DNA from: a virus
Taxonomy: Duplodnaviria; Heunggongvirae; Uroviricota; Caudoviricetes
IMG/VR virus record: IMGVR_UViG_3300006204_000424
Location: 22,382-86,381 of that record
Reading direction: 5' to 3' (one strand)
DNA: 64,000 nt
In this document: positions 1 to 49,372 of the stretch, one piece after another
Layout of the letters: every line of letters starts with the position of its first letter
Position numbering within the stretch: the stretch's first letter is position 1
The notes under the pieces: model-generated
What the model saw: the letters and a program-made list of their open reading frames with translations, nothing else
Database searches by the model: none
What the model was told of the DNA's origin: nothing
Program-made: the position numbers and the translations under genes

Positions 1-1
1 T

Positions 2-280
2 GAAACATATTCTGAGTTACATTCTTCTGAAAATTTCCCCGAACTGGAATTCATATCACAGAGGTTAAATGCATATCGCAATAAGTATGAGGAATCTCAG
101 GAGGTATTTGCAGAGCATGTTGGCATTCATATTGCATCACTTAGCCTGATGGAGCGGAAACGCATGAACCCAAGATTGAGCACACTGCAAAAAATTGCTG
201 CATATATGGGTATTACCGTTTCAGAGCTGCTAACGCCTTTGCAGGAAACACAGAATTCAGATAAGGAAATGAATAGATAA
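2..280 (+). CDS. XRE-family helix-turn-helix transcriptional regulator, 3' fragment (5' end lies outside the window)
   Basis: Open frame from the window edge to TAA at 278-280. Translation ...QEVFAEHVGIHIASLSLMERKRMNPRLSTLQKIAAYMGITVSELL matches the XRE/Cro-C1 HTH pattern. Confidence 0.5.
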   Translation, partial: ETYSELHSSENFPELEFISQRLNAYRNKYEESQEVFAEHVGIHIASLSLMERKRMNPRLSTLQKIAAYMGITVSELLTPLQETQNSDKEMNR

Positions 281-824
281 ATAACCGATACCGATTGGCA
301 TGAGTCAATGAATGATAAAAGAGCAGTTACTTTCGTAGCCGCTCTTTTGTTATGATTATTTTGTATTATCGCATTATAAATATCAAGGCGTTAAACCTAA
401 AAATAACCTATAGTATCTTATAACTACCAAATCAGATGTAAAATTTATACCTTACATTTCAAACCTAATCAAATTTTACCAACTTATCATATTTTGCCGG
501 AAAACAGTATTATTTGATTTATCAATATTATTTTTATAAGGGTTTGCTGAGTTACAATTATCGAAAAGATAATTAATAGAAATTATTATGTTATTAGATT
601 ATTAGCATAAACATTTGTTCTAGTCGCTTATCTATTATTCCACATTTGTTATGTAAATGTGGGGAATAATTGAATGAATAAATTTTTAACAATTGACTTA
701 TGGGAACATATATGCTATTATTGTCAAACAAATATTTCTATATTTCAATCAATGGGACTATATGTTTCCATTGATGAATTTTGTCGTAAATGATAGAATT
801 AAGGAGGTTATGGAGGTTATGGGT

Positions 825-2339
825 ATGTTAAAATCAATTAGCTTGGAAAATTATAAGTGCTTTAAAGATAAAACAGATATTAACGTTGCTCCCCTCACAG
901 TCCTGTGTGGGGTTAATAGCAGTGGGAAAAGTTCTATTCTGAAGAGTTTATTGGTGCTCAAACAATCAGCAACAGGGAATAATAAAAACTTTTCAATCTC
1001 ATTATCTGGTGATTTGGTTGATAGCGGTAACTTTAATAATGTAATCTATGATGGAGAAGATAGCGCGAGTAAGACTTTCAAAATTATTAATGAATTTAAG
1101 ATAAGAAATCATAATCTTGCTTCAATTGGTAAATATATTAAGAAATCGGATGCTGAAGCATTTAATGAATTAAGACGAATTTATACTGCTGTCAGAGGCA
1201 CAATTAAAGAATTTATCCTTAGAGTTGAGATAACTATTGAACAAAATTCTATTAATCTGGATGAATTAACAAAATATATAAATGATAATAGAATATGTGA
1301 ATATGCTATATTTATTTCTGCCATTGATAGGGAGAATAAAATCATTGAAGAATGTGCAAGCCATATTATTATTCGCAACCACAATGACAATAAACATCAT
1401 TTCATTACATGGGAAAATATACCTGGATTTGTAACATCTAGGAATGAAAATAGTTTTAAAAATTATCAATGTGTTTGTTCATTTAATGGGCTAACTGTTT
1501 CAAATATTTTTGCATATAATATGCCTAATTGGGTAAAAGGTATTGTCCCCAATATTCTAGCTATTTCCAGAATTGTATCTAATCAATATACAAATCTGCT
1601 ATATATAGCTCCTTTGAGAAATACACCGGAAAGAACATATATTATGAACAAAGATGTTGACTCTGTTGGCATAGCAGGGCAAGATACTCCAATTTTACTT
1701 GCAAAGCTTAAAAACAAAAAAGTAGATACAGATATGTACTGCCCTTTTAACAATATACTTTATAAAGATCAATTTGATTATACATATGCAGAATATTTAA
1801 CAATTATCCAGCAATGGCTTGACTATTTTGAAATAGGGAAATTGGATATTTCTGGTGAAAATAGAGTGCTAAATTTAAGATTAGATAAACACAATATCGC
1901 AGATGTTGGTTTTGGTGTGAGTCAGTTGTTACCTATTATTTCTCAGGGCGTTTGTATGAACAAAGAGCAAACTTTGCTAATAGAACAGCCTGAAATCCAT
2001 TTGCATCCAAAAATGGAATTGCAAATGGCTGATTTTCTTATTCATATGGCAAAAACAGAAAGACAGGTGATAGTGGAAACTCATAGTGACCATATTATTA
2101 ACAGGATTATAAAAAGAGCAATGGAAAACCCTAGTTTAGTAGCAGATACAAACCCTTTAATTAAGATTATCTTTTTGGATAAAGAGAATATGACATCTAC
2201 TCAAAAAATAGATATTCATATTGATAAATATAGGGGAGTATTGAATGGTACTAAAAATTTCTTTACTCAGTTTGGATTTGAGCAGATGGAAATCGCAAAA
2301 CAAGGATATGAAAACCACAAGAGGGATCAACTAAAATGA
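825..2339 (+). CDS. AAA/ABC-type ATPase (AAA_15/AAA_21-like), candidate NTPase subunit of a two-gene defence-like system
   Basis: Walker A GVNSSGKSS near the N-terminus. C-terminal LLIEQPEIHLHP (Walker B/D-loop-like) followed by VETHSDH (H-loop). Start chosen at ATG 825 with GGAGG 7 nt upstream; the ORF-track start at 693 has no RBS. 4-bp ATGA overlap with the next gene. Confidence 0.7.
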   Translation: MLKSISLENYKCFKDKTDINVAPLTVLCGVNSSGKSSILKSLLVLKQSATGNNKNFSISLSGDLVDSGNFNNVIYDGEDSASKTFKIINEFKIRNHNLASIGKYIKKSDAEAFNELRRIYTAVRGTIKEFILRVEITIEQNSINLDELTKYINDNRICEYAIFISAIDRENKIIEECASHIIIRNHNDNKHHFITWENIPGFVTSRNENSFKNYQCVCSFNGLTVSNIFAYNMPNWVKGIVPNILAISRIVSNQYTNLLYIAPLRNTPERTYIMNKDVDSVGIAGQDTPILLAKLKNKKVDTDMYCPFNNILYKDQFDYTYAEYLTIIQQWLDYFEIGKLDISGENRVLNLRLDKHNIADVGFGVSQLLPIISQGVCMNKEQTLLIEQPEIHLHPKMELQMADFLIHMAKTERQVIVETHSDHIINRIIKRAMENPSLVADTNPLIKIIFLDKENMTSTQKIDIHIDKYRGVLNGTKNFFTQFGFEQMEIAKQGYENHKRDQLK

Positions 2340-3205
2340 GAGTAATATTTTCTCCAAGTTTATATTGTACAGATTGCGCTTTATATAATCTACATCTATT
2401 AGATGATACTTTGAATTTTATTGTGGAGTATCTTGATGCGCAGTTAGATATTTATGATGAGGCTTTTTATAGCGGAAACAATCTATTTCAACCACCAGTT
2501 ACATACTATAATGAATATGCACAATATTGCGGAATATTTACTAAATTATGTAAATTAATGCAGCAAGGCGATAATGTTGTATTAGAACATACTAATACAG
2601 CATTTACAATAGAAAATCGTAATTTTCAGATGATCAATAAATTTGAATTACAGAAAATTATAGATTATATACACTGGTTATTATCAAAAAATTTAATCAG
2701 CGAAGTTATAATGTTTTCAGATGTTATGCCAGAAGATTGCACTAACAATAGTATAGAAATTTCAGTCAACGGCAATCAGATATGTATTCCAATTGTTGCC
2801 GATCCCTGGCTTGATGAAACTGGAAATTTTGATAATTTCATAAAAGAAAATATTAAAGATTATAATAGTATTTTTCCATGTAATGAACTTTGTTGTAAAA
2901 TAGGTAACATAACAATGGAAATTGGCAACAAAGCACTTTACAATAAATATGCAACAATTGTTGCAAACAGGAATGGATATAACAAAATACCGTATTCGTC
3001 TCGCCAATATAAAAATGTACCATATTTTATGCGTAATGATGGAGAGTATATAATATGTGTTGATACATTGCACGGATTATTTGAGGTATTTCAAAAAACT
3101 GGTTCAACATATGAAAAATATTTAGGGGAGTATGATTTTTCATGCAAGAAAGTATCTGCTAAAACATCTTCTTCTGAAACACATAAATGTTATAATGATT
3201 ATTAA
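2336..3205 (+). CDS. Cys-rich partner protein translationally coupled to the ATPase, unknown function (candidate effector; RloB/DUF4276- or AriB/DUF4435-like is untested)
   Basis: 289-aa ORF overlapping the ATPase stop (ATGA). Contains CTDC and CNELCC motifs. No domain recognised by eye. Confidence 0.45.
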   Translation: MRVIFSPSLYCTDCALYNLHLLDDTLNFIVEYLDAQLDIYDEAFYSGNNLFQPPVTYYNEYAQYCGIFTKLCKLMQQGDNVVLEHTNTAFTIENRNFQMINKFELQKIIDYIHWLLSKNLISEVIMFSDVMPEDCTNNSIEISVNGNQICIPIVADPWLDETGNFDNFIKENIKDYNSIFPCNELCCKIGNITMEIGNKALYNKYATIVANRNGYNKIPYSSRQYKNVPYFMRNDGEYIICVDTLHGLFEVFQKTGSTYEKYLGEYDFSCKKVSAKTSSSETHKCYNDY

Positions 3206-3232: not shown

Positions 3233-3343
3233 AATGCCGCTTTTTATATGCTATTACAGCAAAACAATAATCAAAAATCGAATTATATCATAAAATATCG
3301 AATATGTATAGATAGGAATATACCTTCTAAAATGCAAAATTAA

Positions 3344-3392
3344 GGCTACTGAATAAATCACACAAATTATTGATATGATTTATTCAGTAGCC
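3344..3392 (-). terminator. 17-bp-stem hairpin terminator downstream of the minus-strand zinc-ribbon gene
   Basis: GGCTACTGAATAAATCA - 15-nt loop - TGATTTATTCAGTAGCC is a perfect 17-bp inverted repeat. On the minus strand it is followed by a T-rich stretch. Confidence 0.5.
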
Positions 3393-3424
3393 TTACTCTT
3401 AAAAAATATAGAAAGCCATGATAA

Positions 3425-3781
3425 TCAAAAATCACTCTTACACTTATTACAATGGTACTGTTTCCCTACTTTCTTGCTGCCAAAACCAAATAATCCCGTA
3501 GACACTATCCTACTCACTGCTGAAATTTTTGATGTATCTGTTGATTGACAGTATGGACATTTAACAACAGGTATATAATACGGACTATTGGGGTCTAGTG
3601 TTGGATCATATGGTGGTGTATTCTTTACTTTTTCAGCCAATTCCGTATCACAATCAAAATTATCTATAAATGTCAAATCACAATTACACTTTGGACAAAT
3701 TGCGTTATATTCTTTTGAAGTTTCAAATAAATAATATTCTTTACACTGAGGACATTCATATTGATTTTTATTTATAATCAT
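3425..3781 (-). CDS. Zinc-ribbon protein with four CxxC pairs
   Basis: CPQC..CPKC..CPYC..CNKC in a 118-aa ORF. Transcribed divergently from the tape-measure gene. Confidence 0.5.
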   Translation of the reverse strand: MIINKNQYECPQCKEYYLFETSKEYNAICPKCNCDLTFIDNFDCDTELAEKVKNTPPYDPTLDPNSPYYIPVVKCPYCQSTDTSKISAVSRIVSTGLFGFGSKKVGKQYHCNKCKSDF

Positions 3782-3893
3782 AGATTTCCACTCCTGTTTT
3801 TATTTTTAATTATACTTCCTAACAATGTATAAATCAAGTACAACCCCAACAATGTACTAAAAGTGTATCCCAACAATACACACAGACTATAGT

Positions 3894-6800
3894 ATGATAT
3901 TCAGAACGATAACAGACGATATAACAGGAGCAAATAAATCTGTCGGATTATTTGGAAAAACTCTAAATGACCTTAAAGGAATATTCAATTCTTTTAAGCA
4001 GAACGGAATTGTAAGCACATTACTCAACACGCCTCTAATCAATATTGATATGCGTGCCATAAATAGATATAATGACGCAATTAGAGCTGGTAAAAATTTT
4101 GAAGAAGGATTAGCTACAGCACGAAGAACTACTAATGCTGCTACGCTCGCGCTGATTGAATCCTCTCATGGAGCTGAAGTCCAAATTGAAAGAATAACTG
4201 CTGCACAAAGGGCTTCAACCATTGCCGCCAAGGCTCATTCAGCCGCCCTCAAAGCCCTCTCCATTGCAGGGAACATTGCAATGATGATAGCAATCAGCAA
4301 AGCAATCCAGCTTGCCATATCCGCATACGACAATTATGTCCATAGGCTTGATAATGCAAAAGAAGCATTAAATTCTTCTGCCGAATCCTATGAAAAGAAT
4401 AAAAAGGAAATTGAAGAATTACAGAAGCAAGTAGATGAATGTGCAAAGTCTATTGCTAACCTTGAAAAGCTGGAAAAAGATGGAAGTATCTCTATCATTC
4501 AGCAGGACGAATTGGACACACTGCGCCAGACAAATGAAGAACTTCAAAGAGAACTTCTCATTAAGCAGGAACTGGCAAAGGTAGATGCTCGTAAAACTGC
4601 TGACGATGCTACCAAACTATTTAATACTGCTGTTAAAAGTGAGTATGCTGGAAATATATATTATAAATCCAGAATTTTAGGAGATGTATCCCAACAGCAA
4701 GAACTTGAGTTTTCTATTGAAGAATACCAACGCCTTGCAGAACAGCAGAAGCGAAACGACATTGCATACGCCAACGGAGAAATTTCATTAAAGAAATACA
4801 CCAAAACAAACGATAAACTGATACAGGGAATGGCAGATGCCAGGAACAGGGCAACCGAAATGGCAGATGTTATCAATCAAACTGGCACCGCCTTGCAAAC
4901 ACTTGAATCATCTGGTGAAACTTTAACTTCTGACCAACAAACCCTGTTGTCACAGACAAATGCCCTAGGTGATGAGTATTCCAACTTCATCCACCAGATC
5001 GATGCAGCAACAAACGCTTTTGAGCAATTAGATGAGAAACAAAAGAGAGTCCGAGTGAAAACAAGGATTATAGAATCTGGTATCAGTGAAAGTGATGCGC
5101 AATCTATTGTTGACAGTTTTAAGGAGAAAGATCTGGATGTAGTTGGTTCTGTAAAGTTTGACTTTGAAGCACCTGAAAAGTCAGATTTTGATTCCGCAGA
5201 GGAATGGGGAAAGGCTTACGCAGAGAAATTCTTAGAAAGTGCTGTTGAGACTATCGAGAAAGATGAAAGCCTGCAAAATGCAATTGGGCAAACAGCAGAA
5301 AAAATGATTACTTCACTTGAATCGCTTTCCGATGGTTTTGATAAGATTTCTTCCATTTATGAGGATGTACAGAACAAAGCTGATTTCGATTATGGAAGTC
5401 TGATTGATGAAGATTTTGTCAATATTTTCAAAGCATACACAGCGGAATATGAGAATTTTGTTGATGTAATAAGTAACTCCCCTACTGACATTAAGGCTTG
5501 CCAATCCGCATTTGATGATTTGGTAACAGCATGGTTTAATGGGCAGGAACCTTTGAAAAACATCACCGAAGAAACATACGCACTTACTGTAAAATGGTTA
5601 GAGCAAAATGGTGTTGCAAACGCAAACGAAGTTGCAACCTATGCGCTTGCCAAGAGCAAGGTTGAGGCTTTCATTGCAGGACGTGACCTGTCACAAGTTA
5701 CTGACGAAGAAATTGCAAAATTCCTTGAAGAAAATGCCGCGCTTGGTGTAACGCAAGAGATGCTTTGGAAGTTACAGCTTGAAATGATTAACGCCAGCAA
5801 TACAAAACTGGATTTCAGCCAACAGCTTGAAGCATTAAATGAACTTGCTGAACGGGCTGGCGTTGCTGCTATCAGCCTGAGTAATATCGGCGGAGTACAG
5901 ACTGGAAACGCTATTGCAAATAACCTGATTAATTCTATTGCAAACCCTATGGGGACTCAATTTCAGAAAACCGCAATTGCCCATCAACAGAAAGCAATTC
6001 AGGATAAAATCAATAGCGGTACACCAAAAGTTTCCTACACACCCCGTTCTTCTGGTTCTTCTGGCAGTGGTTCATCTGCAAAAGAAAAATACGCTGCCGA
6101 AATTGACAAGTATAAAGACCTTTCTGAAGCCGTAGAGGACGTACAGACGAAGATTGAACATCTCAACGATGTTTACGACCACACAGACGATATTAACGAG
6201 CAGATTGCACTCAAGGACAAGCTGATTGGTCTGTATCAGGATGAGAAAAACGCCCTCTCCGCTTTGAACAATGCCAGAGATAAAGAAATCGCAGAGAATG
6301 TCCAAAAACTTCGTGATGCAAATTTCCAGGTTGATTACGACCCGAAAACTGACAGACTGAAAATCCATAATCTTGAGCATTTGAACGAGCTTTCTCAGGA
6401 TACTATCAAAGATTATGAAGATTTAATCAAGAAAACTGAGGAACTTAACGATGCCAATAAGGACAGCGCAGAGCAATGGACTGACCTTACTTATAAAATC
6501 GTTGAGGCTGGCGATGCAATCAGGGATTTGGAAACCAAAAAATACGAACAGTATATCAAGGATACGGAGCACCTGATTACACTGATGAGCAACCGCAAGG
6601 ATACGCTTGGCGGGGACATTCCTTTCTACACTAATATGATGAACGCCGCTGTTGAGCGGATGATGAAGCTTGCAAAAGAGGGCTACGAGAAAAACAAGGA
6701 CGAAATCCAAGACCTGCAGCGTGACTGGATGGATTACTACGACAAGCGTCTGGAACGAGAAAAGGAAATCCTTGAAATGCAGCTTGACAAAAAAGACGGC

Positions 6801-9215
6801 GCACTTGACGCTGTTATCAATCTGATTGACGAGCAAATCAAACAGCTTGACGATGAGCTTGATTCCATGAAAAAGCTGAACGAGGAGCGGAAAGAAGCAC
6901 TTGAACTGCAAAAAGCACAGGCTGCTTTGGACAAGGCAAAGGATCAGAAGGTCAGAAAAGTCCTGCGTGACGGGAAAGGCTATGTTTACGAAGCCGATGA
7001 AGATGCAGTCAAAGAAGCAGAAGAAAATCTTGCAGACCTGAAATATGAAAGCAAAGTTTCCTCTATTGAGAAGGAAAAGGAAAAATTAGAGGAATACAAA
7101 AACCTCTGGGCTGAAATCCCCAATCTGTTTGAGAAATACCAGAACGAACTTCTTGCAGAACAGATTCTTGGCGCAGGCTGGGAGCAGAAAATTCTTGACG
7201 GACGCTTAGATGTTTACAACGATTTCAAAGATTCCTACTTTGATTTGCAGCAGGATATTTTTGACAAGACCGAGGAACTAAACAACCACATGAATCAGGA
7301 ATACCTTGACATGATGGAAATGTTCCAGAAAATGACTGAGATGGCTGAAACACCTGCGGCTGAAGAAAAGAAACAGGGCAAGGTATGGTATGTCCAGAAA
7401 AACGGACAGGCACCCTCTCAGGCACAGGTTGGAGATAAGATTGTAACCAAAGGCGGCATATACGAAATCGCAGAACCTAATTCCGAAGGGGCGCACTACA
7501 ACGCTGAATCGGGTTTCTGGAACAGGAAACTCAGCGATTATCAGGCAAATGTCGTTGATGGTATGTGGGGAACGGAAGTCAAAAATGCAAATGCTGAACT
7601 CTCCAATATTCTTGGGCTGAATACCCTTTCTAACAAAGATATTGTTGATGCTGCGGAAAATCAGGTCGATGAAATTCGGAACAGTATCATCGCTTCTGGC
7701 GCACTTTCCAAATACACTTCTGAAAACAGCGAGATTACGCAAGACCAGATCCGCACTATGTTTGAAAACATGGATACTCTGGATGGGAACAGCGTCAGCG
7801 TTGAAGGAAATTCCGTCAGGATTGGTGACAATACCTATGCGCTTGAGGATTTGACAAATGCGCTGAATAATTTTGAAATCAATGTAGATATTCCACAGAT
7901 TGCTCCTGATACCAGCGAACCATTTGACGACAGCCAAATGTCCGATACAGACCAGACATATATTAAACAGCTCCAAACTGCATGGAATACTGCCAAAGCA
8001 AATGGCGATACTGAGATGATGAATAAGCTTCATGCAATGGCTGAGGCAAAGCGTGATGAATACAGGAGCGGCAAAACTCCAGAAGAAGCCAAGGTTTATG
8101 AAAAGTCGCAATATGAGTTAAAGAACACGTCTAAAACTGGCGGGGCTTCCCATGGCGGTGAGAAATCAGCACTTCAGCGTGAATATGAATGGCAGTTATC
8201 TAAAGCGAAGGAGTTTGGCGCAAGCAAGGAATATATCAGCAAACTGGAAAGTGCTATTGCGCGTGAGGAATACGGTTCAGGACATACGGTTGACACTTAT
8301 ACTGACCAATACGGGAAAACCAGCACGATTATCAATGCAACAGATAAGTCAGAAGCGAATATGTCCACTGATGAACTTCAGAAAAAGTATAACAGCAACC
8401 TGAACAAGAACAGCGGCAGTATGGATAAGCTTGGCAAAGACCTTGGAAAAACAAGTGATGCCCTTTCTGACACAAGCGATTCCATGTATGATGCAAGCGA
8501 CAATATTGGCACTTCTGCAAAAGATGTTGTAGATTCTAATACAGGGTTGAAGGAAAGCCTTGATGGAGTAAAAACGGCTGTCGAGGGTATGAATTTTGGC
8601 AGCGGGAATTATAGCTCAGAAAGCACATATATTGGCGGGACTCGATTCGTAACTGACAAAAGTTCTGGTAAATTAGTTGCCGCAGGTGATAAAGAGGTTG
8701 GTATTTCTTCCAATGACAAAGTTGTGGGTACAAAAACATGGTCATCTGGCGGTAAGACGTATCAAACTACATCTTATCAGAAACCTGGCGGCAAAGTGGT
8801 TACATCCACAAAAGTAACCAGCAGTAACAAGAAGAAAGCCAAAGGTGGTCTAAACCTTCCCCCCGATATTTATAATGTAGATGAATTGGGTAAGGAAATG
8901 ATCATTGAGCCTGTGCCCCAAGCCATTCAGGGCAGGTATCACGAAATGACATATGGCGGCAACGTAATCCCTGCCGAGGTGAGTGGAAAGCTCTGGGAAT
9001 TTGGTTTGAACCCTGCGGAGTTCATAGAAAAGAACCTGACGAAACTTGTCCAGCCTAATATTTACCCTACTGTTTCCCCCGCATCTTCAAACGTGGAAAA
9101 CCATTACCATGTTGAAAGCCTTGCCCTGCCTAATGTGCAGGATGTTCCTAGTTTCCTGAAAAACCTCTCTATGCTCCCTAATCTAGCCAGCCAGTATGCG
9201 GCAAGGAGGATTTGA
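3894..9215 (+). CDS. Phage tail tape measure protein
   Basis: 1773 aa, very long coiled-coil-rich protein. Ala-rich hydrophobic segment near the N-terminus. C-terminal Gly/Ser/Thr-rich region. Typical size and composition for a siphovirus tape measure. Confidence 0.85.
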   Translation: MIFRTITDDITGANKSVGLFGKTLNDLKGIFNSFKQNGIVSTLLNTPLINIDMRAINRYNDAIRAGKNFEEGLATARRTTNAATLALIESSHGAEVQIERITAAQRASTIAAKAHSAALKALSIAGNIAMMIAISKAIQLAISAYDNYVHRLDNAKEALNSSAESYEKNKKEIEELQKQVDECAKSIANLEKLEKDGSISIIQQDELDTLRQTNEELQRELLIKQELAKVDARKTADDATKLFNTAVKSEYAGNIYYKSRILGDVSQQQELEFSIEEYQRLAEQQKRNDIAYANGEISLKKYTKTNDKLIQGMADARNRATEMADVINQTGTALQTLESSGETLTSDQQTLLSQTNALGDEYSNFIHQIDAATNAFEQLDEKQKRVRVKTRIIESGISESDAQSIVDSFKEKDLDVVGSVKFDFEAPEKSDFDSAEEWGKAYAEKFLESAVETIEKDESLQNAIGQTAEKMITSLESLSDGFDKISSIYEDVQNKADFDYGSLIDEDFVNIFKAYTAEYENFVDVISNSPTDIKACQSAFDDLVTAWFNGQEPLKNITEETYALTVKWLEQNGVANANEVATYALAKSKVEAFIAGRDLSQVTDEEIAKFLEENAALGVTQEMLWKLQLEMINASNTKLDFSQQLEALNELAERAGVAAISLSNIGGVQTGNAIANNLINSIANPMGTQFQKTAIAHQQKAIQDKINSGTPKVSYTPRSSGSSGSGSSAKEKYAAEIDKYKDLSEAVEDVQTKIEHLNDVYDHTDDINEQIALKDKLIGLYQDEKNALSALNNARDKEIAENVQKLRDANFQVDYDPKTDRLKIHNLEHLNELSQDTIKDYEDLIKKTEELNDANKDSAEQWTDLTYKIVEAGDAIRDLETKKYEQYIKDTEHLITLMSNRKDTLGGDIPFYTNMMNAAVERMMKLAKEGYEKNKDEIQDLQRDWMDYYDKRLEREKEILEMQLDKKDGALDAVINLIDEQIKQLDDELDSMKKLNEERKEALELQKAQAALDKAKDQKVRKVLRDGKGYVYEADEDAVKEAEENLADLKYESKVSSIEKEKEKLEEYKNLWAEIPNLFEKYQNELLAEQILGAGWEQKILDGRLDVYNDFKDSYFDLQQDIFDKTEELNNHMNQEYLDMMEMFQKMTEMAETPAAEEKKQGKVWYVQKNGQAPSQAQVGDKIVTKGGIYEIAEPNSEGAHYNAESGFWNRKLSDYQANVVDGMWGTEVKNANAELSNILGLNTLSNKDIVDAAENQVDEIRNSIIASGALSKYTSENSEITQDQIRTMFENMDTLDGNSVSVEGNSVRIGDNTYALEDLTNALNNFEINVDIPQIAPDTSEPFDDSQMSDTDQTYIKQLQTAWNTAKANGDTEMMNKLHAMAEAKRDEYRSGKTPEEAKVYEKSQYELKNTSKTGGASHGGEKSALQREYEWQLSKAKEFGASKEYISKLESAIAREEYGSGHTVDTYTDQYGKTSTIINATDKSEANMSTDELQKKYNSNLNKNSGSMDKLGKDLGKTSDALSDTSDSMYDASDNIGTSAKDVVDSNTGLKESLDGVKTAVEGMNFGSGNYSSESTYIGGTRFVTDKSSGKLVAAGDKEVGISSNDKVVGTKTWSSGGKTYQTTSYQKPGGKVVTSTKVTSSNKKKAKGGLNLPPDIYNVDELGKEMIIEPVPQAIQGRYHEMTYGGNVIPAEVSGKLWEFGLNPAEFIEKNLTKLVQPNIYPTVSPASSNVENHYHVESLALPNVQDVPSFLKNLSMLPNLASQYAARRI

Positions 9216-10145: not shown

Positions 10146-10175
10146 TTGAATATATCCTATGTATCTGGTATAATA
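10146..10175 (+). promoter_or_regulatory. Sigma-A-type promoter for the phd-doc operon
   Basis: TTGAAT - 17 nt - TATAAT (tatctggTATAATac) 25 nt upstream of the phd start. Confidence 0.55.
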
Positions 10176-10199
10176 CTATCAAAAAAAGGATGTGGATAT

Positions 10200-10442
10200 A
10201 TGCAGGTTAATATAAAAAGTTTAGTTTCGATGACAGAAGCAAATCAGAATTTTTCTAAAGTGGCACGGCTTGTAGATGAGAATGGTATTGCTGTTATTTT
10301 GAAAAATAATGCTCCCAGATATGTTATACTTGACTACAGCAAACTTCAAGAAGATGAAATTGCTGATAACCAGACAGTTGAAGATGTTTCAAAAATGATC
10401 TTAGAGAAACATCTTAAAGCATTTGAGGAGTTGGCAAAATGA
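10200..10442 (+). CDS. phd: Type II antitoxin, Phd/YefM family
   Basis: MQVNIKSLVSMTEANQNFSKVARLVDENGIAVILKNNAPRYVILDY fits the Phd/YefM N-terminal fold pattern. ATGA overlap with the downstream Doc gene. Confidence 0.75.
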   Translation: MQVNIKSLVSMTEANQNFSKVARLVDENGIAVILKNNAPRYVILDYSKLQEDEIADNQTVEDVSKMILEKHLKAFEELAK

Positions 10443-10813
10443 TTAGATTAACAAAAGAACAAATTGTCACAATGCACAAGTTGCTCATAATTAAAACTGG
10501 TGGATTAGATGGCATTAAAGATAATGGATTACTTGAATCTGCGATTCAAAGTCCCTTTCAAACCTTTATGGGAGAAGAACTTTACCCTACAATAATTAAG
10601 AAAGCTTCCGTTCTCTGCTATGGATTAATAAACAATCATGCATTTTTTGATGGGAACAAACGTATTGGCATTTTAACAATGCTAACATTTCTGAAATTAA
10701 ATGGTGTTGTTCTTACTTGCACTGATAATGAAATCGTACAGCTTGGTCTTGGAATTGCTTCTGGAAATATCAGCCATAATGAAATATCGAACTGGATCAT
10801 ACAGCACTGTTAA
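10439..10813 (+). CDS. doc: Type II toxin, Doc (death-on-curing) / Fic-fold
   Basis: Fic/Doc motif HAFFDGNKRIG (HxFx[DN]GNKR). 124 aa, typical Doc size. Confidence 0.8.
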   Translation: MIRLTKEQIVTMHKLLIIKTGGLDGIKDNGLLESAIQSPFQTFMGEELYPTIIKKASVLCYGLINNHAFFDGNKRIGILTMLTFLKLNGVVLTCTDNEIVQLGLGIASGNISHNEISNWIIQHC

Positions 10814-22348: not shown

Positions 22349-22399
22349 ATGGAATATTTGTTAAATAAAACTACCCCCCCCCCCGAAAATTTGAACTAA
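22349..22399 (+). promoter_or_regulatory. Leader ORF B (MEYLLNKTTPPPENLN*) containing an 11-nt poly-C tract (22374-22384) upstream of fibre gene B
   Basis: AAAGGAG RBS plus ATG. Poly-C encodes PPP. Paralogous to leaders A and C. Confidence 0.5.
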
Positions 22400-27171: not shown

Positions 27172-28170
27172 TTACAAGAAATTAAAATAACTGCCAAGAC
27201 CCTTTTCAAGAGCTCTTTTATAAGCAACTCCAGCAACGGCGATATCCATAGCCCCTGTACCAATAGGAATACATATAATTCGTTCTTTGCTAACATTTTG
27301 TACAGATTTCTTGTTAGTTGCAATTTCACCTATTGTAGCATAGATATTTTCTTCATGAATTTTTTCATCTTCAACTACATCATGCAGGGCTCCACGATGT
27401 AGGCATTGACCAATATGATCAACAATAATTCTATCAGCATTTAGCAGTAAAGTATCTTCGCATTCCGTATAAGAACCCATAGGGAACACAATTTGTCCTG
27501 GCTTGATCCAATCGTCTTTTATGAATTTATCTTTGGATTGTGTGAAAGCAACAACAACATCGCCAACTGCCGCATCTTCCGGATTGTCGCAAATAATAAT
27601 TTCACCTTTTACAACGTTTTTCATATTTTCCTTAAATTTTGCAGCTGCCGCCGGAAGCATATCATAAACCCTCAATTCTTTGATATCAAATAACTCCGCA
27701 AATGCCAATGTCTGCATATGTCCTTGCATACCAGCTCCATATAAGCCAATTTTAATTTCTTTCCCGGTATACAAATATTTTGTCGCAACAGCAGCTTGCG
27801 CACCTGTGCGCAGATTTGTAATCAAAGCACCATCCATCATACATTTAAATTCGCCAATCGAAGGGTCAATCAGCATAATTGCAGCCGTGACATAAGGTAA
27901 TCCCATTTCACGACGTTTTCCAAGAAATCCTCCAGCCCATTTAATACCAGCAATATCCAGCCATCCGACATAAGCAGGCATAGCATTCATAAAACCTTCG
28001 TAAGCAGGATAAGATGCGGTTTCTCCCAAATCAAGATTAACTTTCGTAGGATTAATTGTCGTCCCTTCACCAAACCCGATGAACGTTTTGTCAACAATCT
28101 CAACGATATCTTTCATAGTGAGAAGATTATCAATATCAGATTGTTTCAGTAGCATAGTCTTATGTTCCAT
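27172..28170 (-). CDS. Ornithine cyclodeaminase / mu-crystallin family enzyme
   Basis: 332 aa. N-terminal LLKQSDIDNLLTMKDIVEIVDKTF. Rossmann motif IGLYGAGMQG. Confidence 0.65.
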   Translation of the reverse strand: MEHKTMLLKQSDIDNLLTMKDIVEIVDKTFIGFGEGTTINPTKVNLDLGETASYPAYEGFMNAMPAYVGWLDIAGIKWAGGFLGKRREMGLPYVTAAIMLIDPSIGEFKCMMDGALITNLRTGAQAAVATKYLYTGKEIKIGLYGAGMQGHMQTLAFAELFDIKELRVYDMLPAAAAKFKENMKNVVKGEIIICDNPEDAAVGDVVVAFTQSKDKFIKDDWIKPGQIVFPMGSYTECEDTLLLNADRIIVDHIGQCLHRGALHDVVEDEKIHEENIYATIGEIATNKKSVQNVSKERIICIPIGTGAMDIAVAGVAYKRALEKGLGSYFNFL

Positions 28171-28194
28171 GATTCATTTCCCCTTTCTTTTTAA

Positions 28195-29667
28195 TCAGTC
28201 ATTATTTTTGTTTATAGTAGAAACTGAACCTCTATTGCTCAGTTTGCTAACAAGAAGGAGTGCAACTACAGATGCTATAAGTCCCCAGATTACATAAGGC
28301 ACAGGAGATTTAAGCAAGGTAGCAATGATACAGCCCAAAATTCCGCATATCATACTTGCTCGTATACCCGCAGTAGTCACCATATTTCTTTTGCGAAGAA
28401 AGTATCCCAGATACATAGGCGCAGCCAAACCAGCAGCAGAATATGCGTAGGTTGTTACAATCGCATTCAATACGTTTGGATAAATGATAGAAAGCGTTGC
28501 CGCAAGGATTAACACAATAACCGAAAGAATCCTTGAAATCTTTAGCAATTTTTTGCTGTCAGTTTCCGGATGTGCCGACTGATAAATATCATGTGTCAGA
28601 TTTACCACAACAGACTGTGCTGCTGAACTTATGGTAGACATAATTGTTGCTACTATCAGACCAGCAAACAGTGCAACCAAAAATATTGGCATCTGCGTCA
28701 ATAGCCATCCAGTGGCATTTTCTCCTTCTATATTAGGGTTCATAGCATGTATTCCCAGACCTAATATACAAGACCAAGCTAATCCTATCAGGATAATTAT
28801 GGCGCTGATGATCAAACTTCTATTAACTTGTTTTTTGTTCTCAATTGCACAAATCCTCTGAAAATACATCTGGTTTGTCATGCCGCCAGGTAATGTAGAA
28901 AAGATCCATAAAAATACAGTGCCCCAACCAACACTAATAAAACCTCTTGGCATTTCAATGATTTCAGATGGGACTCTAACTTTGATATCTGCCACAGAGC
29001 CGCCATTCCGCATAACGAAAGCAAAAGTAACCAGCATGATTACAAGCATAAAACAGCCAAAGAAAAAGTCTGTCCATGCTACTGTTTTCATGCCAGAAGG
29101 CATGACAAAGAGAATGCTGCATATCGCCATTGCAATAATTAGAAATTCCAAAGGCAATCCAGTGATTTCCCGATAGATTTTTGCAAAAGCGGTCATCTGG
29201 GAAATAAGCCAGCCAAATGGCACCAATATAGTTAAGATAGATGCACATACTTTTACAAAACGGTCATTGTTACTAAAACTGCCTACCATATCAGGAATTG
29301 TTTCAAATTCATTTTCTCGTATCCAATTACCAATGAGCATATAAATCAAAAATGGCAAAACAGCAAAAACAGCATAGATTATCATGGCTAAACCATTGTT
29401 ATACGCATTGCCAACCTGCCCGACAAGCACGCCTCCGCCCATTGCACTGGCAAACTGAGTGCCTATTATCACATAAAGCGGCAGGCTTCGACCACCAATA
29501 TTCCAATCTTCTGTTGCATCAGCTTTCTTCTTATTTCGCTTATTGATCACAGTTGTGAGGAAAAAACTCAAAGCCAAAATTGTAATTGTTGCTATAACTG
29601 TAATAATCGCTTTTGTCGTCATTTTTTTCTCCTTTCTGTTGAAATAACAATTCTCAGGATTCATCAT
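28195..29667 (-). CDS. Sodium:solute symporter family transporter
   Basis: 490 aa, multi-pass membrane protein. GTQFASAMGGGVLVGQ region typical of the SSS family. Confidence 0.65.
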   Translation of the reverse strand: MMNPENCYFNRKEKKMTTKAIITVIATITILALSFFLTTVINKRNKKKADATEDWNIGGRSLPLYVIIGTQFASAMGGGVLVGQVGNAYNNGLAMIIYAVFAVLPFLIYMLIGNWIRENEFETIPDMVGSFSNNDRFVKVCASILTILVPFGWLISQMTAFAKIYREITGLPLEFLIIAMAICSILFVMPSGMKTVAWTDFFFGCFMLVIMLVTFAFVMRNGGSVADIKVRVPSEIIEMPRGFISVGWGTVFLWIFSTLPGGMTNQMYFQRICAIENKKQVNRSLIISAIIILIGLAWSCILGLGIHAMNPNIEGENATGWLLTQMPIFLVALFAGLIVATIMSTISSAAQSVVVNLTHDIYQSAHPETDSKKLLKISRILSVIVLILAATLSIIYPNVLNAIVTTYAYSAAGLAAPMYLGYFLRKRNMVTTAGIRASMICGILGCIIATLLKSPVPYVIWGLIASVVALLLVSKLSNRGSVSTINKNND

Positions 29668-35476: not shown

Positions 35477-36664
35477 TTAATTTGTATATTCACAAGTATT
35501 CAGTAATACATCTCTCATTGATTTCATCGCAACATCGCTTGACATATGTGTATAAATATCCAATGTTGTTTTAACATTCTTGTGACCCATAATATACTGT
35601 AAAGATTTTATATCAATTCCACGTTCAATCATCCTTGTACAAAATGTGTGTCGCATAGAATGAGGCGTTATGGCAGGGATTTTATCGTGATGAAATTGGT
35701 TATACAAATTAACAGCATCTGATATACTTTTGTTAAGCATACAATAAGTTACAATTTTTGATTTTTTGTGTGATTTTAGAAGAAATTTTGAATAGCCATC
35801 TATAATAATTTCAATAGGTGTTTCCTCATCTCTCCTTTTTATCAAATTCAAAAATGAAACATATGCTTTATCAGAAATATATATCTCTCGCTTTCCTGCT
35901 TCTGTTTTTAGTGTATCGATTCTGAGTGGTGTGTTAGCGACATTATTGCGAGAACACAGCTGATGGTTTATGCTTAGTTCCCTATTCTTCAAATCAATAT
36001 CATCTAATGTAAGACCCAAAAGTTCTCCAACGCGAATACCTGTTTCTAACATTATGACAAATATGTCATAATACCACTGTATCTTCTTTGTATTCTTCAC
36101 AAATTCCAAAAATTCTGTTTCTTGATTTTGTGATAAAATAGCTTTTTCTTTGTAATTTGAAGGCAAAAAATCCAACTTAATATCGCATGGGTTTTTACGT
36201 ATCCAATCATCTTGTAAAGCAATATTAAAACAAAGTTTCAAAACACAATGATAAAATTGAATTCTTTCTTTGTGGATACCTGCGTTGTATAAACTTAAGT
36301 AAAATTCTTTGATATGAGAAGATTTCACTTTATTTATTTTCATTTTTGCAATTGGATACTTGCTGATGACGTTGATACCATATCGCATTTTTTGTGTAGT
36401 AGATTGCTTCCATTTTTTATTGCTTTCAAAATATATTTTTAGTAACTCTAAAACAAACATATTTCCATTATTAATAGATAACCCATCATCAATATCTTTT
36501 TGAAGTTGTTTTTCCTTTACACGCAATTCTTTTAATGTCGGCGCATATATGGTATGCCTTTTACCATAGCCATCACTACATCGATACATATAGTTACCAT
36601 CTTTACGCTGGCTTTCTCCAGTGAACAAATTCCTGCCCTTATTATCTTTTCTCTTTTCAGCCAT
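35477..36664 (-). CDS. int: Tyrosine recombinase / phage integrase
   Basis: C-terminal catalytic region HSMRHTFCTRMIERGIDIKSLQYIMGHKNVKTTLDIYTHM (R..H..Y). N-terminal arm-binding-like GRNLFTGESQRKDGNYMYR. Start set at MAEKRK (GGAGAGAGGAG RBS); the track ORF extends to 36715. Confidence 0.85.
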   Translation of the reverse strand: MAEKRKDNKGRNLFTGESQRKDGNYMYRCSDGYGKRHTIYAPTLKELRVKEKQLQKDIDDGLSINNGNMFVLELLKIYFESNKKWKQSTTQKMRYGINVISKYPIAKMKINKVKSSHIKEFYLSLYNAGIHKERIQFYHCVLKLCFNIALQDDWIRKNPCDIKLDFLPSNYKEKAILSQNQETEFLEFVKNTKKIQWYYDIFVIMLETGIRVGELLGLTLDDIDLKNRELSINHQLCSRNNVANTPLRIDTLKTEAGKREIYISDKAYVSFLNLIKRRDEETPIEIIIDGYSKFLLKSHKKSKIVTYCMLNKSISDAVNLYNQFHHDKIPAITPHSMRHTFCTRMIERGIDIKSLQYIMGHKNVKTTLDIYTHMSSDVAMKSMRDVLLNTCEYTN

Positions 36665-36752
36665 ACAAATTCGCTCCTCTCTCCTGCCGAAAAGAGCCTT
36701 AATGTGATAAAACATATTTTACCACATCAAGGCTGCAATTACAAATTCCTCG

Positions 36753-47605: not shown

Positions 47606-49372
47606 TTAATTATAACTTGGTTCACTTTTGTCAAATCTTACAGTTTCAAACACTGGAAATTGGATTGATATACCTCCATCCTTATTCTTTGTTTCTTCTT
47701 TATACTTCACAGTAATGATTTTACCAATTACGCCTTCAGGATTTTGCCAAATTCGTTTTCTATCTTCATCAGAAAATCCACTCCCAACATTAACTTTATT
47801 CCCCTTATAGTCACACACCAACGCTCCCAATGTTCCTCTGTTGCGTCCTGAACCTCCTTCTATGCCAATACACTTAATATCGCAAGATAAAAACTTTTTA
47901 ACCTTTATCAAATTTTTAGTACGCTTGCATTCATAAGGTTCATCTAAATTGATAATAACGCCCTCCCAGTCATTTTCTTCAGCATAATCTAGCCACTTCC
48001 AGATTTCAGAATGATCTGTACCGGCATATAACTGATTTACAACCTCTATATTCTTACAGCAAACATCCTGCAATTGTAAATCAAATAGATTTAAGGCTTT
48101 TCTGCGATTTTTATACGTATTATGTGATTTGCCATTCCAAAATTCTTCTAGCGGAAACAAATCAAATACTACTAATTTTAAGTCCAGTTTATTTTCATCT
48201 TTACTCATCGCTATTCCAGTACCTTTTTGGAAAGATTCTGAGTCTGATAGCCCTTCGCTATTTTTATATAAAAGTTCACCATCAATGAAATAATTCTCAT
48301 ATCCCGTTTTCGTAATATCATTGATAATATGATCCAAGCCTATATATTCTTTTCCCTGTCTGGTCATACACTTATTGCCTACAAAAGCACATCTACAATT
48401 ATGAACCGCATATCCATTTGCGAAATAAGTATGATTATTCTCAACTTCTATGTCATAAGCTCTATTGGATTTTCTTTCACTTGAATGGTTAAATTTAAGT
48501 TCTTCACTTAAAATAATTTTTTCTATTTTTCTTTCAATTAATTTATATTCCCCATAACATTTCGTCCAATCATAATCCTTAATATAGATAGTATCTCCTT
48601 TATATAAGGTTCCCGCCTCTTTCCACCCATCAGGAGTGAATATTTTATGATTTTTTGTTACTTGAATAAAATCTCTAAGGTTCCCTCTTTCTACGGCAGT
48701 TTCTATTTGCATCCATTCTGACCTATCTTTTAGTCCGTTATCAAATACATTTATTACTTTTTGTTTTGATATTTTTTTGGTATTTTCATTAAATGATAAA
48801 ACTTCATCGCCTATAACTATATCTTTAATTTTCTTTTTTGTATTATCAGACATAGTAATATATGTATTTCCATCAAAACATCCGTTTAACTTTCTGGATA
48901 TAGAAATCCATTCATTGCCTTTTAGTTTCACTTTATCAATCGGAGTACCAAGCATAACATCAAAGGTCGGAATAAGTCCATGAATGCACTTGTTCACTAA
49001 TTTTGCATCAGCTCCAAGTTTTATACTTTTTGTGATCAATCCTCTAACAAAATCTTTTACTTCATTACTCATCATACAGCACCACGACTGTACATGTATT
49101 ACATCTTCTTCTCTTCCTGTGTTGTGTTGCTTAATATAATTCAACAATCCTAAAAATTCACTATCAATATCATTATGTACCCAATCTGATGTTTGAACTG
49201 TAATTGAATCAAATTTCTTTTCTGCAATTCCTGTTGTTACATTTCCATCTAACAGGAACTTCAAACATTCCTTAAATAACTCGTTATCTTTGTTATTTGT
49301 AATGATTTTCTTTTTGTCATTTAGGCTACTTGTTTTCTGAATTTGCTTAAATAATTTTATAACTTCTAACAA
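47606..49372 (-). CDS. ATP-dependent DNA ligase interrupted by a mini-intein
   Basis: After removing residues 165-325, motif I is KLNG|CR. Motif III LVVFDL, motif IV EGVIINL, motif V LIKVKK. C-terminal OB-like FPVFETVRFDKS. Confidence 0.65.
   Translation of the reverse strand: MLEVIKLFKQIQKTSSLNDKKKIITNNKDNELFKECLKFLLDGNVTTGIAEKKFDSITVQTSDWVHNDIDSEFLGLLNYIKQHNTGREEDVIHVQSWCCMMSNEVKDFVRGLITKSIKLGADAKLVNKCIHGLIPTFDVMLGTPIDKVKLKGNEWISISRKLNGCFDGNTYITMSDNTKKKIKDIVIGDEVLSFNENTKKISKQKVINVFDNGLKDRSEWMQIETAVERGNLRDFIQVTKNHKIFTPDGWKEAGTLYKGDTIYIKDYDWTKCYGEYKLIERKIEKIILSEELKFNHSSERKSNRAYDIEVENNHTYFANGYAVHNCRCAFVGNKCMTRQGKEYIGLDHIINDITKTGYENYFIDGELLYKNSEGLSDSESFQKGTGIAMSKDENKLDLKLVVFDLFPLEEFWNGKSHNTYKNRRKALNLFDLQLQDVCCKNIEVVNQLYAGTDHSEIWKWLDYAEENDWEGVIINLDEPYECKRTKNLIKVKKFLSCDIKCIGIEGGSGRNRGTLGALVCDYKGNKVNVGSGFSDEDRKRIWQNPEGVIGKIITVKYKEETKNKDGGISIQFPVFETVRFDKSEPSYN
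48398..48880 (-). mobile_element. 161-aa mini-intein (no endonuclease domain) inserted at ligase motif I
   Basis: Begins with Cys + block A (CFDGNTYITMSDNTKKKIKDIVIGDEVLS). Ends TYFANGYAVHN followed by the +1 Cys. Confidence 0.65.

Follow-up and report, generated by a model that had tools for sequence, protein, structure and literature searches.

A mobile gene pair, probably a relative of Menshen and HEC-03, coupling an NsnB-type ATPase to a predicted colicin E3-type RNase: a candidate anti-phage module

Menshen (NsnA-NsnB-NsnC; Millman 2022; PMC12065111) and HEC-03 (Hma-embedded candidate 03; bioRxiv 10.1101/2024.01.29.577857) are the closest described systems to a gene pair found in a stretch of 64,000 nucleotides (nt) of the virus record IMGVR_UViG_3300006204_000424 (positions 22,382 to 86,381; this whole stretch is called the window below), which encodes an ATP-binding cassette (ABC) ATPase of 504 amino acids (aa) and a 289-aa partner. 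Menshen is a mobile, polymorphic system of adjacent, overlapping genes and, according to its description (PMC12065111), its ATPase NsnB carries an E-N pair instead of the Walker B D-E dyad, an Arg instead of the Q-loop Gln and GxG instead of the SGG signature, with a DUF3696 tail predicted to clamp the PIN-like domain of the effector. That effector, NsnC, joins an inactive PIN-like N-terminal domain to C-terminal RNase-type toxin domains, a repertoire that includes, in the same description, Gp49-, YoeB-, Ntox21- and Ntox18-related domains, PB-BECR, Toprim and PLD. Its catalogue comprises the inPIN1-35 families and 15 NsnC-C families. HEC-03, as described in its preprint, consists of an ABC ATPase and a PIN protein and is anti-phage by experiment, both genes being required. 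Compared with these systems, we consider it reasonably probable, as one joint reading, that the pair in the window is a self-contained two-gene relative of both, combining an NsnB-type ATPase with an NsnC-type effector that ends in a colicin E3 (ColE3)-type ribonuclease (RNase), that it acts against phages, and that it is carried by a temperate phage whose gut host is one of the low-GC Clostridia/Lachnospiraceae. The assignment of the architecture, predicted from sequence profiles and a structural model, is well supported, and the defence role, suggested by analogy, is plausible.

The frame of the ATPase gene is open over 693..2339, and its start was placed at the ATG at 825, which has a GGAGG 8 nt upstream and whose residue 1 aligns with position 1 of both the AAA_15 and the NsnB profiles. 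The open reading frame (ORF) of the partner begins inside the end of the ATPase gene, sharing with its stop codon an ATGA at 2336-2339 that can be read directly from the sequence, and the two genes are translationally coupled. Both ORFs, their sizes and this overlap had been reported in the original prediction, an annotation made from the letters alone, and they are confirmed here, as are the motifs that it quoted (GVNSSGKS at residue 29, LLIEQPEIHLHP at 384 and ETHS at 418-421).

The ATPase belongs to the AAA_15/OLD-ABC clade, with a full-length Pfam match to AAA_15 (1.6e-27) and another to AAA_21, and dozens of the defence-ATPase models in PADLOC match it. The best of them is the NsnB of Menshen (5.9e-62, 208 bits, residues 1-483 against 1-335 of 345), followed by HEC-03B (2.1e-43, 147 bits), PDC-M55A (1.2e-35) and AriA (1.9e-34, 118 bits); AbiLi (47.5 bits) and PtuA (41.4 bits) match partially, and GajA, PtuA, Old and AbiLi align solely around the nucleotide-binding motifs. 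The same ranking is obtained with the other partner-linked ATPases, since NsnB is the top model in 5/5 of them (216-251 bits) with the HEC-03 ATPase second each time, and the margin of NsnB over AriA is 90 bits for all the ATPases tested. The motif oddities of NsnB are also present, namely the Arg at the Q-loop position and the GxG, with a Walker B that lacks the canonical catalytic Glu and reads E-Q where NsnB has E-N. As for the DUF3696-type tail, which is sub-threshold in the window protein, a match at the equivalent position reaches 26.7 bits in the ATPase of locus L018 (above the cut-off of 22) and 16 bits in those of L023 and L024, and none is seen in L009 and L013, making the tail detectable in 4/6 ATPases, the one in the window included. 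By analogy with its relatives, the ATPase is proposed to hold and regulate the toxin, and possibly to act as the sensor.

The partner is publicly annotated as a 'hypothetical protein', and direct scans against Pfam, PADLOC (down to E<=1), NCBIfam and PHROGs gave no meaningful match for it. A search with the profile of its family against PDB sequences returned noise (the best match being a cellulase, E 0.12), IMG/VR yielded no relative of the partner, and no INPHARED phage was matched by window positions 1-25000 in a megablast. An exhaustive hidden Markov model (HMM) search of 1.84 billion proteins did recover a family, of 78 clusters at 50% identity (15 in a word-indexed search), nearly all of them 280-310 aa long and matched end to end, so the two-domain architecture appears to be fixed; neither domain was seen in any other protein context in that search. 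A confident AlphaFold2 (AF2) model of the partner (predicted local distance difference test 83.8, predicted template modelling score 0.82) folds as a PIN-like domain followed by a colicin E3-type RNase domain, the latter also supported by hhalign, and this replaces the earlier view of a protein of no recognisable fold. The same view had called the partner Cys-rich. Although it has 12 Cys (4.2%), only C186 (54/59) and C8 (32/59) are conserved in the family, and a metal-binding Cys cluster was discarded; these counts and those that follow come from a 59-member alignment reaching down to 16% identity.

The N-terminal part of the partner finds its fold matches among PIN domains (scores: Nmd4 5.2, EST1A 4.8, VapC15 4.4, SMG5 4.3, VapC26 4.3 and VapC11 4.2), and it lacks the canonical acidic quartet of these nucleases (D-E-D-D), positions 38 and 160 being the only ones rich in acids across the family. 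At position 6, the end of strand 1 and the site of the first PIN Asp, there is Ser in 29/59 members, among them the window partner, and Asp in 27/59. This pattern fits, at the level of sequence, the inactive PIN-like N-terminal domains of NsnC, and by analogy the domain is proposed to serve for docking and regulation. The window allele is unusual within residues 128-133 (2717..2734), where the family has F-x-G-x-x-N (G or S in 52/59, N in 53/59) and the window partner has D129 and P132; the allele with both substitutions is an exact match on at least 25 contigs.

The case for a kinship of the C-terminal domain with ColE3 comes from several sides. In hhalign, the 59-sequence profile aligned to the single ColE3 sequence (sequence and numbering from PDB chains, whose residues 494-551 are an exact match to the bait and fix D510..E517 and R545) scores 26.1 with P=5e-5, about 10 standard deviations above 60 shuffled controls (8.9+/-1.6, maximum 13.1), and places D243, H246 and E250 on ColE3 D510, H513 and E517; with a shallow alignment of 13 sequences the signal is weak (P 0.018), and it becomes convincing solely with the 59. 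The family consensus ...SID.EHGGFEVF...HLGEY.FSG...P..HK likewise resembles the ColE3 stretch ...EWDSQHGELEGY...HLGSFDPKTG...PKRNIK. The Cytotoxic family of ColE3 (PF09000) is the sole Pfam family matched by more than one member (3/59, best E 0.0046), with scores under the Pfam gathering threshold and no match for the window partner itself. Residues N213, D243, G247, E250 and H283 are invariant (59/59), R212 is nearly so (54/59), and His occupies position 246 in 43/59 and position 262 in 37/59 in a complementary manner: both are present in 21 members, the first alone in 22, the second alone in 16, and neither in 0. This recalls what is known of Tox-ColE3, whose signature is 'R, Dxx[HK], E, H' and some members of which can do without the first His, the second being conserved (Zhang et al., PMC3482391), and the family residues R212, D243, H246, E250 and H262/H283 agree with it. 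H283, given its invariance and its alignment, is a probable active-site residue. With D243, H246, E250 and H283 intact, the window partner is predicted to be catalytically competent.

The likeness extends to the predicted fold, a small one of one helix and a twisted antiparallel sheet, which in the model resembles both ColE3 (PF09000) and the CdiA-CT of Enterobacter cloacae (Ntox21). With ColE3 the family shares the D-x-x-H-G-x-x-E block and the (H)LG-x-aromatic-D/N strand in register, the conserved Arg, a C-terminal basic or His residue and the alternative-histidine pattern of Tox-ColE3. Cleavage of 16S rRNA at A1493/G1494 is known from two toxin families, ColE3 and CdiA-CT(ECL) (PMC9304027), so that the two folds nearest to the domain both belong to RNases of the decoding centre. 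The similarity to ColE3 is remote (13-24% identity). Unlike those toxins, the partner is not secreted and has no translocation or receptor domain and no Rhs, CdiA or LXG carrier; instead, the domain is fused to a PIN-like one and coupled to an ATPase. It also lacks an Im3, CdiI or Imm45 immunity gene, and no cognate Im3, Imm-Cloacin or Imm45 gene is found directly 3' of the partner.

The pairing of the two genes is not due to chance, as an AAA_15 ATPase lies directly 5' of the partner, with an overlap or a gap of at most 15 nt, in 8/8 independent lineages of partner homologues whose identities go down to about 16-30%. These are the window type (L001-L008), the P0004 and P0009 loci, Clostridium sp. 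AM49-4BH, P0044, P0017 (with a frameshifted ATPase), P0061 and P0080. The pair thus occurs on phages, on one conjugative-type element and in defence islands of gut Clostridia. In several phage-like contigs it occupies a variable hotspot, close to giant tape-measure-like genes and to regulators of the CI/LexA type or XRE. Another phage-like contig (P0080) encodes thymidylate synthase and an RNA ligase, and in Clostridium sp. AM49-4BH the carrier is a region resembling an integrative and conjugative element (ICE), with sortase, type IV secretion system-like genes and a 1784-aa methylase-helicase. Among 185,579 species genomes, only 2 contain a partner locus (that Clostridium and a Dorea metagenome-assembled genome) and, together with the mobile carriers, this indicates a module that is rare, mobile and not part of the core; neither a match of the partner to a housekeeping family nor a core-genome context of the pair, which would have spoken against a defence role, was encountered. 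In the Dorea locus (L015, 410..1695, uncultured Dorea sp.), a DDE-type transposase gene is directly followed by what is left of the partner, the last 120 residues of its C-terminal part; this is a remnant disrupted by an insertion sequence and devoid of the ATPase.

The presumed sensor of Menshen, NsnA (ParB-DUF262 with ParBDB), is missing from this picture. No NsnA-like gene was found in the window, either by a scan of its ORFs for the DGxQR/DUF262 motif or by tblastn (best E 0.85), the PADLOC scan of the neighbours of the pair returned no NsnA, and NsnA adjoins the pair in 0/8 lineages. The published survey of Menshen was seeded on NsnA, according to PMC12065111, and pairs without it would therefore have been out of its reach.

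Taken together, the pair resembles Menshen in its best ATPase model and motif oddities, in a possible DUF3696-type tail, in the two-domain plan of the effector and in its overlapping genes and mobility, and differs from it in having two genes and not three, with NsnA unlinked and an XRE gene upstream, and in an effector that matches no NsnC model of PADLOC and ends in a domain of the ColE3/Cytotoxic type. A related effector domain may nonetheless exist in canonical Menshen, since Ntox21, to which some NsnC domains are related in that description, is the CdiA-CT(ECL) family (PMC3482391). With HEC-03 it shares the plan of an ABC ATPase plus a PIN-type protein, encoded by two genes; unlike it, the PIN-like domain here has no catalytic acids, does not match the HEC-03 PIN model and carries the ColE3-type domain appended, whereas the HEC-03 partner is a VapC-like PIN with no C-terminal toxin domain in the available portion of its description. 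PARIS (AriA-AriB) and Septu (PtuA-PtuB) offer a working analogy, in which an oligomer of an OLD-ABC-clade ATPase sequesters a nuclease effector and releases or activates it when a phage infects. The trigger is sensed, in PARIS, by the complex of the ATPase itself, and these systems are often borne by phages or satellites. Unlike in the present pair, their effectors are of the Toprim (AriB) and HNH (PtuB) types, and the window ATPase is nearer to NsnB than to AriA or PtuA.

A mechanism can be proposed on these grounds. Co-expression of ATPase and effector would be ensured by their translational coupling, that is, by the ATGA overlap and the conserved adjacency. Oligomers of the ATPase may then grip the PIN-like domain of the effector by means of the DUF3696-like tail and keep the RNase silent, as suggested by the predicted NsnB4-NsnC2 complex and by PARIS and Septu, and such silencing would make an immunity gene unnecessary. 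In view of the missing NsnA/ParB-DUF262 sensor, the ATPase or the complex itself might sense the cue of infection, as AriA does in PARIS. The Walker B E-Q suggests slow hydrolysis, so that it may be upon ATP binding, rather than by fast hydrolysis, that the complex changes state and the effector is freed or activated. The ColE3-type domain would then cut RNA. To judge from its fold and the conservation of its active site, the most probable target is the decoding centre of 16S rRNA, with the cut falling between A1493 and G1494, and as a consequence translation would halt and the infection abort. The carrier phage would benefit from the exclusion of competing phages from its lysogen. A broader proposal is held more tentatively and seems to us less probable than the reading above: that these pairs form an unrecognised lineage of sensor-less Menshen-like systems, in which an NsnB-type ATPase detects infection and unleashes a ColE3-type 16S RNase, and which temperate phages and ICEs of gut Clostridia have spread as a weapon of inter-phage exclusion.

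Several observations weigh against a self-contained, active defence pair. The E-Q in the Walker B might make the ATPase a poor enzyme, the G129D and N132P departure of the window allele could alter docking or regulation, and the window partner falls under every curated threshold in Pfam, PADLOC, NCBIfam and PHROGs. Besides, two loci of one lineage (L009 and L010) hold an NsnA-like gene (PADLOC NsnA 5.1e-33) 5 kb upstream, unlinked to the pair and set apart from it by a PemK toxin-antitoxin (TA) pair and an oppositely oriented repressor; L011 and L012, sibling contigs that carry this pair too, lack the NsnA-like gene. In L009 this region (2048..3046 and 3307..4218, also in L010) encodes the NsnA-like ParB-DUF262 protein followed by a DUF6731 protein, and it may represent either a DUF262-based system of its own or a sensor displaced from a Menshen system. 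The GmrSD_N and DUF6731 genes of L009 were discarded as parts of the system, as sibling loci lack them, and are regarded as a separate neighbour.

The lineage of L009 and L010 is an argument for regarding the pair as an ordinary three-component Menshen whose NsnA, encoded elsewhere, acts in trans, which the NsnB-like ATPase and the NsnC-like effector would also suit. However, the absence of NsnA from the whole window and from the position next to the pair in every lineage, its absence from L011 and L012, and the movement of the pair as a two-gene unit among unrelated mobile elements render this unlikely, and HEC-03 shows that pairs of ATPase and PIN protein can function with two genes. The original prediction took the locus for an ATPase-effector defence pair akin to AbiL/RloAB, PARIS or Septu. 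The general idea has stood, in that the pair is mobile cargo and its ATPase matches defence ATPases, but the family assignments have not: a divergent PARIS (AriA and AriB), Septu (PtuA and the HNH protein PtuB) or AbiL/RloAB (ATPase and DUF4276/RloB Toprim) can count on the full-length, though weaker, match to AriA, the partial ones to PtuA, GajA, Old and AbiLi and the same overlapping two-gene layout, and it is nevertheless very improbable, because no DUF4435/Toprim, HNH, DUF4276 or RloB signal is seen in Pfam or PADLOC for the partner or any of the 59 members at E<=10, the partner is modelled as PIN-like plus ColE3-like, and NsnB prevails over AriA throughout.

Other alternatives concern what the effector does and when. 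The C-terminal domain could target tRNA or mRNA, or bind RNA or the ribosome without catalysis, with the PIN-like domain perhaps being a nuclease in the Asp6 members; to this we give a low probability, a little above that of an NsnA in trans. The remoteness of the similarity to ColE3 and the Asp at position 6 in nearly half of the family leave room for it, as do other ATPase-coupled effectors of defence that cut tRNAs (PARIS, Retron-Eco7/Septu), and a 2026 preprint arguing that some Menshen PIN domains keep acidic residues. Against it speak the catalytic D, E and His, invariant or complementary family-wide, the 16S specificity of the two nearest folds, and, for the PIN-like domain, the lack of a conserved acidic quartet and the Ser of the window partner. 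Slightly higher, and still low, is the probability that the pair is a TA-like addiction or stabilisation module, or a weapon between elements, in which the ATPase is the antitoxin and phages are not sensed. A toxin domain of the warfare type without an immunity gene, the tight coupling and a location on mobile elements beside classic TA pairs (PemK, Phd-Fic) would be expected from such a module, but an ABC ATPase of 500 aa in which Walker A and H-loop are conserved would be a costly antitoxin, and its closest relatives (NsnB, HEC-03 and AriA) come from experimentally validated defence systems. Since abortive-infection systems and TA modules overlap mechanistically, this alternative differs from a self-contained defence pair chiefly in the trigger.

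The analysis provides a structural and mechanistic annotation for a family that is listed as 'hypothetical' and goes undetected by Pfam, PADLOC, NCBIfam and PHROG models, and it suggests that two genes forming the core of Menshen, NsnB and NsnC, are able to persist and travel on their own, free of the presumed sensor NsnA. This bears on the signalling from NsnA to NsnB and on the need for NsnA, and a natural pair that lacks NsnA offers a simple setting in which to study how the ATPase senses. If the proposal is correct, the ribotoxin fold of colicin E3, typical of the warfare by bacteriocins, contact-dependent inhibition and Rhs, enters ATPase-gated intracellular immunity, with a precise and easily assayed lesion predicted (the cut in 16S rRNA at A1493/G1494) whose damage would in principle be reversible by ribosome repair of the RtcB2-PrfH type. 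Cleavage of rRNA by other defence effectors has been reported in the literature; among the papers listed by a full-text search of one literature collection, none combines colicin E3 with phage-defence terms, and we know of no earlier anti-phage system with an effector of the ColE3 ribotoxin fold. The pair also enlarges the defence cargo attributed to phages of gut Clostridia, which have been under-represented when defence systems were sought.

Table 1. Features of the gene pair and of its upstream region (window coordinates; residue numbers are those of the respective protein).
Feature	Position	Strand	Basis
XRE-family helix-turn-helix (HTH) regulator gene, 3' end	1..280	+	stop TAA 278-280; frame read from sequence
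Hairpin AAAAGAGC...GCTCTTTT, then T-rich run	317..352	+	read by eye; weak evidence
Best promoter-like site 5' of the ATPase gene, TTGACT-17-TATTAT with extended -10 TG	693..721	+	promoter scan; candidate
NsnB-like ABC ATPase (AAA_15/OLD-ABC clade), 504 aa	825..2339	+	Pfam and PADLOC
Walker A GVNSSGKS (residues 29-36)	909..932	+	
PLR (residues 263-265), Arg at Q-loop position, NsnB hallmark	1611..1619	+	
GFGVSQ (residues 362-367), GxG for ABC signature SGG, NsnB hallmark	1908..1925	+	
Walker B LLIEQ (residues 384-388), E-Q for D-E dyad	1974..1988	+	
H-loop THS (residues 419-421)	2079..2087	+	
DUF3696-like C-terminal tail (residues 447-489)	2163..2291	+	Pfam 12.9 bits, E 0.14, cut-off 22
Predicted effector, 289 aa, NsnC-like architecture	2336..3205	+	AF2 model and family profile
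PIN-like alpha/beta domain (residues about 1-190)	2336..2905	+	
Predicted colicin E3-type (Tox-ColE3 / Pfam Cytotoxic-like) RNase domain (residues 192-289)	2909..3202	+	
Predicted catalytic block D243-T-L-H246-G247-L-F-E250	3062..3085	+	hhalign to ColE3 D510-S-Q-H513-G-E-L-E517
H283, family-invariant, at most 2 alignment columns from ColE3 R545	3182..3184	+	family alignment and hhalign

The surroundings of the pair (Table 1) agree with the XRE regulator upstream and the tail genes downstream (the latter at 15.6-19.4 kb) that had been described before. Contigs of identical layout have at the XRE position a 165-aa protein with two HTH_3 domains, and this gene is probably an upstream neighbour with its own transcription unit, that is, context and not part of the module. 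The hairpin that follows it, left unflagged by the terminator scan because its loop exceeds 8 nt, is a possible terminator of the XRE gene that would set it apart from the pair. Scans for promoters and terminators are uninformative in such an AT-rich region, where promoter-like sites are no more numerous than in shuffled sequences, for which reason the site upstream of the ATPase gene is a candidate promoter at most. The pair does not sit at a prophage border, as had been thought: longer contigs with the identical pair have at least 10 kb of phage-like genes on its 5' side, including RusA and a PhageMin_Tail fragment, and since these lie 5' of the XRE gene, the pair is internal cargo by the tail module. 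The GC content of the cargo is about 29% (28-31% over the cargo region, 25-30% for the cargo flanking the giant gene), against 40-46% for the adjoining giant gene (3894..9215, plus strand), whose coiled-coil-rich product of 1773 aa has no Pfam domain and one short PHROG match of unassigned function, and is presumably tape-measure-like.

Between the pair and that giant gene, a gap of 220 nt is followed by a convergent gene (3425..3781, minus strand) for a protein of 118 aa that contains two zinc ribbons, of which the C-terminal one, CPxCxST..KI..R...G...K..C..C, is kept in the gene 3' of the pair in all phage-type loci. The gene was considered as a third component or immunity factor and rejected, being absent beside the divergent pairs and in the ICE-type locus, and its conservation probably reflects the synteny of the hotspot or the phage backbone. 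In L002, L005 and L007 there are six extra genes between the partner and a 1788-aa gene (131, 542, 110 or 99, 146, 120 or 98, and 161 aa; no Pfam domain) that are absent from the window, which marks the site as a variable hotspot for cargo.

Across the loci, the neighbours of the pair include Kiwa, a SoFic-like Fic, PemK and Phd-Fic. In L018 (418..1407) and L019 (319..1308), a 329-aa Fic protein (PADLOC SoFic, 4.7e-44) ends 14 nt 5' of the ATPase of a divergent pair, and the three genes could form one operon or be two stacked defence genes. In L021, KwaA and KwaB of Kiwa (331..1717 and 3888..5416) are encoded 3 kb 5' of the pair, and the ATPase is broken into ORFs of 290 and 206 aa; this is possibly a decaying copy in the context of a defence island. 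The window has, between the 1773-aa gene and the distal tail genes, a Phd/YefM-type antitoxin gene (10146..10442, plus strand) overlapping a small Fic gene of 124 aa (10439..10813, plus strand), domain calls that were taken from contigs of matching gene layout, and this looks like a second, TA-like cargo pair.

Further downstream, host-like metabolic genes for an ornithine cyclodeaminase and a sodium:solute symporter are followed by a Tn916-type tyrosine integrase (27172..29667 and 35477..36715, minus strand), all within 27-37 kb. The window may thus cross from one mobile element into another, or contain the end of a prophage plus a second integrated element. From 42 kb onwards, the minus strand encodes a replication module. 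Inside that module, which includes NrdD, a RecD2-like helicase, Pol III alpha and DnaB, the gene for an ATP-dependent DNA ligase (47606..49372, minus strand) is split by an intein, with Hint/Intein_splicing domains between the adenylation region and the OB domain.

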